Below are positions 5,061 to 41,367 of a stretch of DNA of 64,000 nt, in pieces. Location: assembly GCA_964349765.1 (NCBI GenBank), contig CAYGGZ010000002.1:99151-163150 (forward strand), given 5' to 3'. A model generated the notes under the pieces. The model saw only the letters and a program-made list of their open reading frames with translations. It searched no databases and was not told the origin of the DNA. The position numbers were made by a program, and so were the translations under genes. The stretch is from an uncultured Bacteroidales bacterium (GTDB lineage: Bacteria; Bacteroidota; Bacteroidia; Bacteroidales; JAAYJT01). Numbering within the stretch: the first letter of the stretch is position 1; each line of letters begins with the position of its first letter.

Positions 5061-6407
5061 TTAGTTGAACTTATCGAGCATTGGTTTTACATGACGAAAT
5101 CCGCTGAGCATAGCATCGGACAGCATGTCTACCTCTTTTTGTGTTACCATTGTTGAAAACACGCAGGAGCACGAATTTACGATCATCACTCCATTTTCGT
5201 AAAGGTGGTCGATAAAGGCATTAACGATTTTTTTTGTCTGCTCATCTTCATATCCATCGCGATACGACAGCGGAGGCGTTTGGCGGAAATGCACCTTAAA
5301 CAATGACCCCCCTCCGGTGAGGCAAACCGGAACATCGGCTGTTTTAACTGCTTCTTCAATCTGTTTACGAGCCTTTGCAGTTGTTTCGTTGATCTTCAGC
5401 ACTGCCTTGCGATCGAAAAGTTCGAGGGCAACCTTTCCTGCAGCCATTGAAACGGGATTTGCGGAGAAGGTTCCTGAAAGAGGAAACCGGAATTTGGAGC
5501 TTCTCGGATCAAGAACTTCCATCACATCGTTTCGTCCGGCAAAAGCCCCGATAGGAAACCCGCCACCAATTAATTTGCCCATGGAGGTAAGATCAGGTTT
5601 TTGAGGGTAATCCTGCTGTGCGCCTTCGTAGTTTACCCGAAAGCAAATAACCTCGTCGAAGCACAGTAGAACATTGTTTTGGCGGGTCCAATCGAAAACT
5701 GCACTTATAAATTCCTGTGAAGCAGGAATCAAACCAATTCTGTGAGGAACCGGATCGATTAATACACATGCCAGTTCAGATGCATGCCTGTTGAGAATAT
5801 TAATGGTTCGTTCAACATCGTTGAAAGGGAAAATCACTACATCGTTTAAAACGCCCTGCGGTGTGCCATGAACAAGTGGAACGCTTTGGGGCTGGTTTAG
5901 ATCGCCCCAGTTTACGGGAGTAGAAGATTGGCTCACCTCCGCAACATCATAGCTGCCGTGGTATGCTCCTTCGGCCTTAGCTATCTTGGGTTTGCCTGTA
6001 AAAGCACGGGCAGTCTTGATCATAGCCATTACGGCTTCGGTACCGGAATTCACAAAACGTATTTTATCGAATCCTGGAACGCGGTTGCAAAGCAATTTGG
6101 CAAGGTCAATTTCTATTTCCGATGCAAGAGTAAATGCAGTGCCTCTGGAAATTTGTTCGCATGCGGCCGAAACAATTGCCGGGTGAGCGTGTCCGTGAAT
6201 GAGCGATGCGATATTGTTTGCAAAGTCAACACGCTTTACTCCATGAATGTCAGTAACATAACAGCCTTCAGCATGAGAAACGTAATGCGGATGCGGCTTC
6301 CGGAAATGAACGTTGCGGCTGATTCCGCCAGAGAGCACTTTGCATGCTTCGCTGTAAATACTCTCGTCGGTTTTTAGATCGGTTTGTGTTTTATAGTTTG
6401 TTTGCAT
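5061..6407 (-). CDS. Class III (GSAM-like) PLP aminotransferase; candidate beta-amino-acid aminotransferase
   Basis: The 448-aa product has GTEAVMAMIKTAR, AYHGS, FDEVICFRV and the PLP-lysine context MGKLIGGGFPIGAF, as in the glutamate-1-semialdehyde aminomutase-like branch. Only the gene context suggests a beta-amino-acid role. Confidence 0.8.
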   Translation of the reverse strand: MQTNYKTQTDLKTDESIYSEACKVLSGGISRNVHFRKPHPHYVSHAEGCYVTDIHGVKRVDFANNIASLIHGHAHPAIVSAACEQISRGTAFTLASEIEIDLAKLLCNRVPGFDKIRFVNSGTEAVMAMIKTARAFTGKPKIAKAEGAYHGSYDVAEVSQSSTPVNWGDLNQPQSVPLVHGTPQGVLNDVVIFPFNDVERTINILNRHASELACVLIDPVPHRIGLIPASQEFISAVFDWTRQNNVLLCFDEVICFRVNYEGAQQDYPQKPDLTSMGKLIGGGFPIGAFAGRNDVMEVLDPRSSKFRFPLSGTFSANPVSMAAGKVALELFDRKAVLKINETTAKARKQIEEAVKTADVPVCLTGGGSLFKVHFRQTPPLSYRDGYEDEQTKKIVNAFIDHLYENGVMIVNSCSCVFSTMVTQKEVDMLSDAMLSGFRHVKPMLDKFN

Positions 6408-38051: not shown

Positions 38052-38639
38052 TCAAGCCTGTTTTTCTTTCCCGACTTTAAACCATGTTTTCGCCCAAAGC
38101 CACAGGCGAAATATCAGAAATGCCTCAATTGCGCCTACGATCCCACCTGCAATTATATCGCCCGGATAATGCACCCCGAGATATACCCTGCTATATGAAA
38201 CCAGGCTCGACCAAACCAGCATAAAGATAGCCATGAACCTGAATTTGTTCCAAAACAGCAGCGCCATAAATGCAGCCAACGAGAATGTATTGCTGGCATG
38301 GGAAGATATAAAACCATACTTTCCGCCGCAGCGGCCGTGAGGTAGATACACCAATCCTTCCAGCGTTGGCTCATGACAGGGTCGCAGGCGTTGAAATACA
38401 TCTTTAAATGCAACTACAGAAACCCGATCGCTGATAGCAAATAGCAGAAGCGCCAAAATTACCAGCAGGATTGCCATCTTTCCATAATACCTGTAGAGCA
38501 GATATACTAAGAACAGGTACAACGGTATCCATATTTCGCGATGGCTTAGCCAGTACATTATAAAATCAGCAACCGGCGAACTGATTCCGTTCAGGAATAA
38601 AAAAAGCTGTGTATCAATGTGCATTAACCACTCAATCAT
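38052..38639 (-). CDS. PAP2 family phosphatase
   Basis: It carries KDVFQRLRP ... SSHASN ... [12 protein letters not shown], the three acid-phosphatase motifs, in a polytopic membrane protein. Confidence 0.88.
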
Positions 38640-39642
38640 GATTGCCTGTTTTGAACTTATTTAACATCTGCCATAACATCTCTTTTAGTTTTGTTAATCC
38701 CAACCGGCTATGGGATGAAATAAAAACATGCGGAACCAAAGGTAGTTCCTTTTCCATTTCTTTGATCAGTTCATAGTCAATAAGGTCGGATTTTGTAATA
38801 GCCAAAAGCCGGTCTTTATCCAATAACTCGGGATTATATGTTTGCAACTCTTTAAGAAGAATGTTGTACTCGTCGGCAATATTTTTAGTGTCAACAGGTA
38901 TCATGAAGAGCAGTAGAGAGTTACGTTCTATATGACGTAAAAATCGTAGTCCGAGACCTCTTCCTTCGCTTGCTCCTTCGATAATTCCTGGGATATCGGC
39001 CATAATAAATGATTTCCGATCGTGGTAAGCAACAATTCCAAGGTTTGGGGTGAGTGTGGTGAACGGATAATCAGCAATTTCTGGTTTGGCGGCTGAGAGT
39101 TTGGAGAGTAATGTGCTTTTTCCTGCATTTGGAAAACCTACCAGGCCAACATCGGCAAGAATTTTCAACTCGACGGTTAACCACATTTCTTTGCCAGGCT
39201 CGCCGGGTTGAGAGAATTTTGGGGCTTGCATGGTAGCGCTTTTGAAAAAGTCGTTTCCTTTTCCACCTCTACCACCTTCCAGAATTACAAGGGTTTGATC
39301 ATGGTTAGTAACCTCGCCTAATACATTTCCTGTATCTGATTGGCAAACAATTGTTCCCAGCGGAACTTCGATAATTACGTCTCTGCCTGCTGCTCCGGTC
39401 ATCAATTGGCGGCCTCCGGATTCTCCATCACCAGCAAACAGGTGTTTAGTGTATCTAAGGTGTAGCAACGTCCAAAGTTGGCTGTTACCTTTGAGAATCA
39501 CATGCCCTCCACGGCCGCCATCGCCGCCGTCGGGACCGCCCCATGCCGTTTGTTTGGTTCGGATGAAATGCACCGATCCTGCCCCTCCCTTTCCTGAACG
39601 GCCAAATATTTTTACTAAATCAATAAAATTCTGATTTGTCAT
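38632..39642 (-). CDS. obg: GTPase Obg/CgtA
   Basis: [26 protein letters not shown]...[12 protein letters not shown] is the Obg fold. It is followed by the G domain [21 protein letters not shown] and TKSD. Confidence 0.95.
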
Positions 39643-39645
39643 GTG

Positions 39646-40815
39646 TTAGCGTATGCTTTTATAAGCATATTCAACTGCAGCAAAAAGCCGTTCAAAAACC
39701 TCCTTTTCAGCACCGCGGCCATCAACAGCGGTGTATTTACCTTGTTTGCGGTAATATTCGGAAACCGGTAATGTTTTGGTTTCATGTTCTTCGAGCCGGT
39801 GAATTATCATATCGGTGGTCATATCGTAGCTTCTTCGTTTTTCGGTTTTACTACGCGCCGAAAGACGCTTAATCAGCTCAAGCGTAGGAACCTGAAGGTC
39901 AATGGCATACGAAACCGTAGAGTTCATGCGACGCAGCAAGCCGTCGAGTATATAGGCCTGAACGATGCTACGCGGAAATCCCTTAAAAATGAACCCACTT
40001 ACGTTAGGATGATCTTTTATTTCCCTTTCGATCAGCGGGATAGCAATATCGTCGGGAACAATCTCACCACGGTCAAGAAAAGGCCTTGCCAGTTGTCCGA
40101 TAGGGGTTTTTTTGTCTATCTCTTTTCTTAGCATCGATCCGGTAGAGATGTAAAACAGGTTGAACCGGTCGGCAAGGTATTTGGCCTGCGTTCCTTTACC
40201 TGCTCCCGGCGGGCCGGATATCACAAGGTTGAACCACACTTGCTGAAGCGTTTCGTCAATGGCTTGTGTCAATCGTGCGAACACCTCATCAATTGTTCCA
40301 ACGCCATTAATAGGAAAGTATTTGCCTTTTTCTTTGTAGAACTCGGCTACCGGAATAGTTTTAATATCGTATTCCTTGAACCTGTTTGCGATTATCTCTT
40401 TTTTATCGTCGTTGCGACCCTCAATTTCATACCTTTCAAGTACACGCTTGAGCAGTAATTCCCTGGGAGCATCAAGGCTGAGCATACATGTAAGAGAGCT
40501 TCCCAATTTTAGAAGCAAACCTTCTAAAATGTATGCCTGAACTACAGTTCTTGGAAACCCATCGAATAAAATACCATTTGTATCGAGTTCCTTATGGATT
40601 TTATTCTCAATAATTTGCACAATGATCTCATCGGAGGCCAAGCCTCCTTTTTCTATCTGCGCCTTTGCCTGCATTCCGAGTGCTGACTTGTTTGCTATCT
40701 CCTGCCGCAGGATATCTCCCGTTGAGATGTATGTCAGATTGTATTTTTCGACGAGTTTTTTTGATTGTGTTCCTTTTCCGGCGCCTGGGGGGCCAAAAAG
40801 AGCGATGTTCAACAT
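39646..40815 (-). CDS. adk: Tandem (two-domain) adenylate kinase fusion
   Basis: The 389-aa product has two complete Adk-like halves. The first spans aa 1-193 (40237-40815): FGPPGAGKGTQ, STGDILR, DGFPRT, GRNDD. The second spans aa 194-389 (39649-40236): SGPPGAGKGTQ, STGSMLR, KGFPRS, with the LID reading KRRSYD. By eye the halves are roughly 40% identical. Confidence 0.85.
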   Translation of the reverse strand: MLNIALFGPPGAGKGTQSKKLVEKYNLTYISTGDILRQEIANKSALGMQAKAQIEKGGLASDEIIVQIIENKIHKELDTNGILFDGFPRTVVQAYILEGLLLKLGSSLTCMLSLDAPRELLLKRVLERYEIEGRNDDKKEIIANRFKEYDIKTIPVAEFYKEKGKYFPINGVGTIDEVFARLTQAIDETLQQVWFNLVISGPPGAGKGTQAKYLADRFNLFYISTGSMLRKEIDKKTPIGQLARPFLDRGEIVPDDIAIPLIEREIKDHPNVSGFIFKGFPRSIVQAYILDGLLRRMNSTVSYAIDLQVPTLELIKRLSARSKTEKRRSYDMTTDMIIHRLEEHETKTLPVSEYYRKQGKYTAVDGRGAEKEVFERLFAAVEYAYKSIR

Positions 40816-40818
40816 ACT

Positions 40819-41367
40819 TTAATGTTTGATTTGTGGTACTATTTTGTAAATATCTCTCAGATTTCGTCCATAGCCGTCGTAATCAAGGCCATACCCAACT
40901 ATAAAATCGTTGGGTATCTCAATACCAATATAATCAATCGTGAGATCCTTCCGGAGAGCCGCAGGCTTTAGCAGGCATGTAGCAATTTTCACCTCGGTGG
41001 CATTAAGTGCCTTAATTTTGCGAACCAATTCATCCATGGTGTGACCTGTATCAATTATATCCTCAACAACAACAACGGTCCTATTTGCTATTTCCTCATT
41101 TAAACCAATCAGTTCCCTTACTACCTGCGTTGAATGAATACCGTCGTACGACGAAAGCCTGACAAACGAAACATGGCAATCAACATTAATCCGGCGAATT
41201 AAATCAGCAGCAAATATAAAAGCGCCGTTAAGTATTACAAGAAACAACGGCAACTTTCCTTCCATGTCGGAATTTATACGCCCGGCCATTCTTTCAACTG
41301 CTGCTTCAATCTCAGATGCAGGTATGAATGGTTCAAAGTACTTGTCTTTCAGCCGAATAGTTTTCAT
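40819..41367 (-). CDS. hpt: Hypoxanthine phosphoribosyltransferase
   Basis: The 182-aa product has ...VVVVEDIIDTGHTM... (PRPP-binding motif) and ...IPNDFIVGYGLDY... Confidence 0.92.
   Translation of the reverse strand: MKTIRLKDKYFEPFIPASEIEAAVERMAGRINSDMEGKLPLFLVILNGAFIFAADLIRRINVDCHVSFVRLSSYDGIHSTQVVRELIGLNEEIANRTVVVVEDIIDTGHTMDELVRKIKALNATEVKIATCLLKPAALRKDLTIDYIGIEIPNDFIVGYGLDYDGYGRNLRDIYKIVPQIKH

Follow-up and report, generated by a model that had tools for sequence, protein, structure and literature searches.

A tandem adenylate kinase of Bacteroidia with a canonical first unit and a divergent, possibly non-catalytic second unit

Adenylate kinase (Adk) is a textbook model for the coupling of enzyme dynamics to catalysis, and to our knowledge the bacterial enzyme is treated as a single-domain monomer. 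The adk gene considered here raises the question of what a second Adk unit might do within the same polypeptide. It is situated in a stretch of 64,000 nucleotides (the window) of an uncultured Bacteroidales bacterium (contig CAYGGZ010000002.1, positions 99,151 to 163,150), and a first-pass annotation made from the sequence alone had described it as a fused tandem of two Adk domains, the second of which, with a degenerate LID, might be regulatory or have a different specificity. The N-terminal unit (residues 1-192) has all features of a bacterial short-LID Adk, and the C-terminal unit (residues 193-389) exhibits a fixed replacement of two active-site aspartates. The reading favoured here, with a probability of roughly 0.55, is that a housekeeping Adk is fused to a nucleotide-binding module which may be catalytically weak or dead and may serve as a sensor or stabiliser.

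The gene is a single open reading frame (ORF) of 389 codons that starts with ATG and contains no internal stop, according to both the ORF listing and the translation, as had been claimed. Pfam ADK (PF00406) matches the protein in two stretches with a total of 290 bits, which confirms the presence of two complete Adk-like units in one chain. The BLASTP alignment of residues 1-192 with residues 193-389 spans 189 columns and shows 41% identity and 68% positives (E 1e-56), in good agreement with the roughly 40% estimated earlier by eye; this likeness far exceeds chance. The P-loop coordinates given in the first-pass annotation are exact (Table 1), and the motifs quoted there are all found, i.e., STGxxLR, GFPRT/S, R..R....GRNDD....R in the N unit, and R..R.....RRSYD....HR in the C unit.

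For comparison, at least 236 protein clusters (90% identity level) of 383-395 aa with the same fused two-unit architecture were available, and the catalytic positions were read in an alignment of 236 full-length tandem proteins, using the numbering of E. coli Adk. The N unit passes the curated adenylate kinase cutoffs (NF001381, 212.5 bits with a cutoff of 187; TIGR01351, 183.2 with a cutoff of 168) and is 45-54% identical to standalone Adks of around 190 aa. All 11 catalytic positions (K13, T15, R36, R88, Q92, R119, R123, R156, D158, D159, and R167), as well as the Asp84 equivalent, are invariant in 236/236 sequences. By sequence criteria, the N unit is an ordinary bacterial short-LID adenylate kinase, as the short-LID pattern recognised earlier had indicated, and it would be the working ATP:AMP phosphotransferase of the protein.

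Concerning the C unit, the profile scores lie below the cutoffs of NF001381 (180.5, cutoff 187) and TIGR01351 (163.5, cutoff 168) and above that of NF011100 (158.1, cutoff 154), which makes this unit a borderline case. The position of Asp84 is occupied by Lys (Lys278 in the window) and that of Asp158 by Tyr (Tyr330), each in all of the 236 sequences, such that the C unit possesses neither the Asp84 equivalent nor the LID Asp pair of an adenylate kinase, exhibiting Tyr330-Asp331 instead of Asp158-Asp159. The change from Asp to Lys at position 84 is the most consequential one in this unit. It had been overlooked in the first-pass annotation, which counted the GFPR motif of the C unit as intact: The motif itself is present, but the Mg2+-anchoring Asp that should precede it is missing. 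Equally, the LID of the C unit is altered as stated, but the term degenerate does not hold, as four arginines and the second Asp are present and R-x-D-D has become a fixed R-x-Y-D. The LID loop, with the conserved pattern SKTExxRxYDM, is around two residues longer than that of the N unit, with about one additional residue on each side of the core. A four-way MAFFT alignment placed the LID gap in such a way that Y330 was not paired with D136; the register of R134-N-D136-D137 to R328-S-Y330-D331 was fixed because of the invariant R-x-[DY]-D pattern and of a short turn that the structural model described below places in both units alike, at residues 135-137 and 329-331. The motif K-G-[FY]-P-R is almost confined to the tandem family when the 150 best-matching representatives from 1.84 billion proteins are inspected. 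The most divergent member, locus L005, has Asn at the Asp84 position of its C unit and R-V-Y-D in the LID.

Of the remaining catalytic positions of the C unit, the equivalents of Q92, R119, R123, D159, and R167 are invariant across the 236 sequences, whereas the P-loop Lys position (K 165, R 47, M 24), the Arg36 position (R 129, Q 56, K 33, H 13, N 5), and the Arg156 position (R328 in the window; R 120, M 116) vary. The variable positions divide cleanly between two subfamilies of 389 and 390 aa. In the subfamily of the window, they read KRRR in 113 of 119 sequences, and the C unit possesses the P-loop Lys and five catalytic arginines (K207, R230, R282, R321, R328, and R340), together with R317, the Arg119 equivalent, all of them invariant or nearly so (R282 in 113/119); no change affects the Gln92 equivalent or the AMP-lid motif G-E-I-V-P-D. 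The sister subfamily of Bacteroidota (e.g., P0282, MDP3463299.1) shares the architecture, the motifs F-K-G-[FY]-P-R, x-Y-D, and KRLxAR, and the common C-unit clade. It differs in that its variable positions read KRRM (9), KKRM (33), KNRM (3), RQRM (32), RHRM (13), RNRM (2), or MQRM (24), i.e., the C unit has lost the P-loop Lys (R 47, M 24), the Arg36 equivalent (Q, K, H, or N; 107), and the Arg156 equivalent (M; 116). Accordingly placed, the 71 of 236 sequences with R or M at the K207 position all belong to the search set of the sister subfamily. The mean pairwise identity of C units is 63.5% in the sister subfamily and 62.2% in that of the window, such that the domain is no less conserved in the former. 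Since the sister subfamily keeps the domain without the P-loop Lys and two catalytic arginines, the role for which the C unit is selected throughout the family would not be catalysis.

The two fixed positions have been studied by mutagenesis in E. coli Adk. There, Asp84 anchors Mg2+ via two water molecules, and in the D84A mutant kcat drops from 330 to 1.8 s-1, Km rises from 70 to 470 uM, and the crystal lacks Mg2+ density; Asp at position 84 is 88% conserved among bacterial adenylate kinases (PMC11313852). Asp158 binds the catalytic Arg156 in a bidentate manner when the enzyme is closed; in D158A, opening is favoured, and both the R123/R156/R36 stack and R167 are disturbed (PMC10778088). By analogy with these mutants, the replacement of both aspartates would strongly impair canonical Mg-dependent transfer in the C unit, whereas the full complement of residues that bind phosphate and adenine in the subfamily of the window (Lys207 and the equivalents of Arg36, Arg88, Arg119, Arg123, Arg156, Arg167, and Gln92) suggests that nucleotides continue to be bound.

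According to the proposed scenario, the two-unit adenylate kinase would go back to a single tandem duplication with fusion, which would have taken place long ago within Bacteroidia. The C unit would have kept the Adk fold, and the two aspartates would have been replaced at the root of the family, that at position 84 with a reversal of charge and that at position 158 by an aromatic residue; ancestral states of the C clade are claimed for the shared K278 and Y330 only. The C unit would still bind adenine nucleotides, with Mg2+ probably not in its proper position, and its Mg-dependent phosphoryl transfer would be poor or absent. It might thus constitute a non-catalytic or weakly catalytic nucleotide-binding partner of the N unit, either a sensor or a stabiliser, and not a second full enzyme. 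The earlier suggestion that the C unit may be regulatory or differently specific can be upheld as a possibility. A more specific and rather doubtful version is that the C unit might be a natural pseudo-adenylate kinase acting as a cation-independent adenine-nucleotide sensor, in which Lys278 would occupy the Mg2+ site and which would respond to the energy charge, or else to nucleotide free of Mg, to Ap(n)A, or to an alarmone, and tune the N unit allosterically.

A neighbour-joining tree of 109 units served to trace the origin of the C unit. It contains both halves of the tandem proteins from the two subfamilies, 30 standalone Adks, Adks with a tail or an Hpt fusion, one independent tandem, and outgroup sequences. 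The C units, that of L005 among them, all group in one clade with a bootstrap value of 96/100, such that they have a single origin, in agreement with the old duplication assumed in the first-pass annotation. The C clade appears, provisionally, as sister to a clade formed by the N units and two standalone proteins. This would fit a single duplication and fusion that preceded the split of the two subfamilies. Reciprocal monophyly of the C units of the two subfamilies is unsupported by the neighbour-joining bootstrap, with one sequence (P0271) mis-binned by the grouping based on identifiers.

Both halves are under strong purifying selection and evolve at comparable rates. The protein of the window is 81% (N) and 77% (C) identical to that of the related locus L001, and 64% identical in both halves to that of L004. 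The ratio of nonsynonymous to synonymous substitution rates (dN/dS) amounts to 0.038 for the N unit and 0.051 for the C unit, as obtained from the pair L002-L003, the only one usable: In comparisons of the window with L001 and L004, synonymous sites are saturated (proportion of synonymous differences, pS, >0.8), and L002 and L003 are offset by 3 nt from the register of the window. The value of 0.051 indicates that the C unit is maintained by selection and is not decaying. An AlphaFold2 model based on an alignment of 51 sequences exhibits the Adk secondary-structure pattern in both units, with a mean predicted local distance difference test score (pLDDT) of 88.3. In a Foldseek comparison with the PDB, the top match to the whole model is bovine AK8 (9fqr_G8), followed by single-domain short-LID Adks with target-normalised TM-scores of 0.8-0.88.

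Several points weigh against the reading of the C unit as a catalytically weak or dead partner. The residue conservation in the subfamily of the window is the pattern expected of a still-active kinase. The Lys at position 84 could stand in partly for Mg2+ or support another metal geometry, and E. coli D84A retains 1.8 s-1 (PMC11313852), so that loss of the Asp alone leaves some activity. The model has a predicted TM-score (pTM) of 0.57 and leaves the relative placement of the units undefined, thus giving no structural sign of communication between them, and the tree is a neighbour-joining tree with short deep branches. Finally, in L004 (OY781463.1, chromosome of a Bacteroidales metagenome-assembled genome, MAG), a separate canonical adk of 191 aa (5174-5749) is situated 3 nt past the stop of the tandem gene.

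Alternatively, both units would be fully active like those of human AK5 and AK8; the fusion would then double or co-localise Adk activity, and Lys278 and Tyr330 would be neutral or compensated. AK5 and AK8 indeed provide precedents for two active domains per chain (PMC10056885), and the C unit in the subfamily of the window, with its P-loop, five catalytic arginines, Gln92 equivalent, and one LID Asp, lies above the cutoff of one adenylate kinase equivalog (NF011100) and is kept by strong purifying selection. This is nevertheless considered unlikely: Asp84 is a key Mg2+ anchor, the removal of which costs around 180-fold in kcat and which is replaced here by the opposite charge in every aligned sequence, the Asp158 equivalent is lost too, and other tandem Adks have both aspartates in each unit. 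Moreover, the losses tolerated by the sister subfamily speak against catalysis as the conserved role. The C unit might, on the other hand, be active with altered chemistry or specificity, e.g., in a cation-independent transfer with Lys278 in place of Mg2+, with another donor or acceptor, or as an NDP-kinase-like or Ap(n)A-forming enzyme. The fixation of charge-changing replacements (D to K, D to Y) beside retained phosphate-binding arginines in the subfamily of the window, the longer and conserved LID loop, and the location of the gene between the purine-salvage gene hpt and the GTPase gene obg would agree with this. However, the unchanged adenine-selecting Gln92 equivalent and G-E-I-V-P-D motif argue, from general knowledge of Adk, against a new base specificity, a sister subfamily without the P-loop Lys is hard to square with a family-wide phosphotransfer chemistry, and no known family bearing such a variant was found among NCBIfam profiles, in the PDB sequence search, or among the 150 best representatives. 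An altered chemistry is regarded as still more improbable than two ordinary active units.

An artefact, i.e., a chimeric assembly or two adjacent adk genes merged through an overlooked stop or frameshift, might be thought of in view of the separate adk that follows the fused gene in L004. This explanation is effectively refuted. The junction near 40236 corresponds to residues 193-194 (..TLQQVW/FNLVISG..) and contains neither a Met nor a stop; in the subfamily of the window (subfamily A), Asn196 at the junction does not vary, and Trp194 is at least 90% conserved. The ORF of 389 or 390 aa is uninterrupted in at least 236 clusters from the assemblies of four independent data sources (NCBI, JGI, ENA, and Logan), cultured isolates (Lentimicrobium, Ancylomarina, and Labilibaculum) included, in line with the view of the first-pass annotation that assembly had not created the tandem. 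One protein (P0162, 202 aa) was the sole candidate for a standalone C unit and had to be rejected as such: Its contig starts 24 nt upstream and the frame is open to base 1, such that it represents a contig-end fragment. No free-standing C-type unit was found in an exhaustive search of representative proteins.

The tandem fusion is common in Bacteroidales MAGs, Lentimicrobiaceae, and Marinilabiliales. A first homologue search covered 5.8 billion proteins; the best 120 matches listed are 60-93% identical to the protein of the window, 111 of them with a length of exactly 389 aa. When the more distant member P0282 was used as seed, another 120 proteins were listed, nearly all of 390 aa. Scanning genome contigs with the single protein of the window as query yielded eight loci, five of them tandem, and the fused ORF is kept in the four related loci L001-L004. 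Named sources comprise Bacteroidales MAGs, Lentimicrobium (including the isolate L. saccharophilum), Marinifilaceae, Marinilabiliales, Ancylomarina sp. YFZ004, and Labilibaculum sp. DW002, all belonging to the class Bacteroidia, orders Bacteroidales and Marinilabiliales, with Lentimicrobiaceae among the families. A partial entry labelled Bacteroidales bacterium (P0018) is 100% identical to the protein of the window. Bacteroidia-type tandem Adks are also found in bins of other phyla, i.e., L005 (JAOZTV010000330.1, labelled Candidatus Aminicenantes) and P0045 (labelled Hyphomicrobiales), which could be due to mis-binning or to horizontal transfer. L005 is a contig of 3.5 kb, and its C unit exhibits the P-loop GPPGAGKGRVS, FNGFPR, and IKSLKAR.

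The first-pass annotation had raised the prospect that such fusions might already be common and characterised in this lineage. They are common, but a characterisation was not encountered: The literature searched contained no relevant paper on a bacterial tandem, fused, or pseudo adenylate kinase, the PDB sequence search and Foldseek revealed no solved structure of a bacterial tandem Adk (single-domain Adks plus the eukaryotic AK8 and AK9 only), no PDB chain of more than 245 aa matches the protein of the window by sequence, and NCBIfam has no model dedicated to the family. The only label given by the sources for the tandem proteins is "adenylate kinase". The family thus appears to be unstudied although widespread.

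The coordinates of the gene, of its two units, and of the neighbouring genes are compiled in Table 1. The conserved hpt-adk-obg context noted earlier is confirmed by the profile matches of the two flanking genes. In the window, the genes between 38632 and 41367 are packed very tightly, and the order hpt-adk-obg-PAP2 is also found in L001-L003. This close packing of the hpt, adk, obg, and PAP2 genes suggests one transcription unit. No further adk-like gene was found elsewhere in the 64-kb window. In L004, the additional adk mentioned above has the LID sequence IEGREDD and the motif FDGFPR, and its 3' end overlaps the start of obg (5746) by 4 nt, such that three Adk units are situated in a row; in the neighbour-joining tree, this third copy lies outside the clade of N and C units. 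For the sister subfamily, one genomic context was examined, that of P0282 (loci L010-L012), in which the tandem adk is flanked by an acyltransferase-3 gene on one side and by a convergent phosphoglycerate kinase (pgk) gene on the other, and not by hpt or obg.

Table 1. Location of the tandem adk gene, its functional positions, and its neighbours within the window
Feature	Position	Strand	Basis
Tandem adenylate kinase gene (whole)	39646..40815	-	389 aa + stop; single ORF, two Pfam ADK stretches; at least 236 full-length homologues alike in architecture
N unit, canonical short-LID adenylate kinase by sequence	40240..40815	-	NF001381 212.5 bits, cutoff 187
N-unit P-loop GPPGAGKGT, G8-T16 (K14 = E. 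coli K13)	40768..40794	-	sequence; K14 invariant
N-unit Asp85 (E. coli Asp84) in FDGFPR, outer-sphere Mg2+ anchor	40561..40563	-	alignment to E. coli Adk; D in 236/236; role according to PMC11313852
N-unit LID core R134-N-D136-D137 (E. coli R156-K-D158-D159)	40405..40416	-	R, D, D invariant; short turn 135-137 in model
C unit, divergent, Adk-derived	39649..40239	-	NF001381 180.5 (cutoff 187), NF011100 158.1 (cutoff 154); one clade, bootstrap 96/100; dN/dS 0.051
C-unit P-loop GPPGAGKGT, G201-T209 (K207)	40189..40215	-	sequence; K207 kept in the subfamily of the window
C-unit Lys278 (codon AAG) at Asp84 position, in FKGFPR	39982..39984	-	K in 236/236
C-unit LID core R328-S-Y330-D331, Tyr replacing Asp158 equivalent	39823..39834	-	Y330 and D331 invariant, 236/236; turn 329-331 in model
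hpt (hypoxanthine phosphoribosyltransferase)	40819..41367	-	upstream, 3-nt gap to adk; TIGR01203 155 bits, cutoff 150; synteny in L001-L003
obg (GTPase ObgE/CgtA)	38632..39642	-	downstream, 3-nt gap from adk stop; NF008956 411.6 bits; synteny in L001-L004
PAP2-family phosphatase gene	38052-38639	-	downstream of obg, 8-nt overlap with obg

In a large clade of Bacteroidia, adk hence encodes a canonical unit joined to an ancient paralogue, which is substituted at two positions studied by mutagenesis (Asp84 by Lys, Asp158 by Tyr), and the sister lineages exhibit successive further losses. The family may provide a natural series for the transition from a nucleoside monophosphate kinase to a pseudoenzyme and a candidate for nucleotide-sensing regulation of Adk. 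Should the C unit in fact be a pseudo-Adk sensor, it would add to a paradigm enzyme a regulatory layer previously undescribed in bacteria, and the sister subfamily would represent further evolution into a purely structural domain. As the members are labelled plainly as adenylate kinase, a caveat for annotation is that the presence of the C unit should not lead to a count of two enzymes.

Compared with bacterial short-LID Adk (EC 2.7.4.3; PF00406; NF001381), each of the two units is similar in fold and length, and the N unit possesses the complete catalytic set. The best PDB sequence match of both halves is the Adk of Thermus thermophilus (3CM0; E 4e-40 and 4e-35), which, together with that of M. 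tuberculosis (2CDN), is also among the single-domain short-LID structures matching the model by Foldseek, with target-normalised TM-scores of 0.81-0.87 for such structures. The differences are the presence of two units per chain and, in the C unit, the Lys at the Asp84 and the Tyr at the Asp158 position.

Two Adk domains in tandem within one polypeptide are likewise found in eukaryotic AK5 and AK8, the latter of which gave the top Foldseek match mentioned above. According to the first-pass annotation, two-domain Adks are known mainly from eukaryotes (AK8/AK9 type). The eukaryotic precedent holds; concerning the type, AK5 and AK8 are the enzymes described as having both domains active (PMC10056885), and independent bacterial tandems exist as well. 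The protein studied here differs from AK5 and AK8 by the missing Asp84 and Asp158 equivalents in its C unit, and because the sister group of the C clade is formed by the N units of its own lineage, its two-domain architecture would be independent of theirs. Eukaryote-like tandems (P0193, P0232, P0248), with only around 30-36% identity to the protein of the window, differ in the same way, as they possess DG[FY]PR and R-x-D-D in both units.

Other arrangements of Adk were met with among the proteins inspected. P0168 (401 aa) is an independent bacterial tandem Adk of high GC content, each unit of which has DG[Y]PR as well as the Asp pair. P0175, P0199, and P0275 (438-441 aa) are further independent bacterial tandems, but with the opposite polarity: Here it is the N unit that is degenerate (GPACAGKST, GFPMT), followed by a C unit that is a long-LID Adk of the Cys4 zinc type. 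P0186 (382 aa) and P0220 (378 aa) are Hpt-Adk fusions, in which a phosphoribosyltransferase unit is followed by a canonical Adk, such that the operon neighbours hpt and adk are fused into a single chain in some organisms. Ten entries (P0188, P0192, P0202, P0206, P0208, P0209, P0250, P0253, P0255, and P0257), labelled by the sources solely as adenylate kinase, are canonical Adks of around 190 aa that carry a low-complexity tail of 140-250 residues, rich in Lys, Ala, and Pro and histone-H1-like.

The closest general parallel might be that of a pseudoenzyme domain fused to an active paralogue, an analogy drawn solely from general knowledge. A duplicated domain, the loss of a metal-positioning acidic residue, purifying selection, and stepwise further losses in a sister clade are common to both, and the C unit indeed combines a fixed D84K with a retained fold (mean pLDDT 88.3) and a low dN/dS. 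It differs from the general concept in that most catalytic residues are still present in the subfamily of the window. The tandem Adk family would accordingly not constitute a new type of system, but probably an overlooked natural pairing of a paradigm enzyme with its own pseudo-copy.

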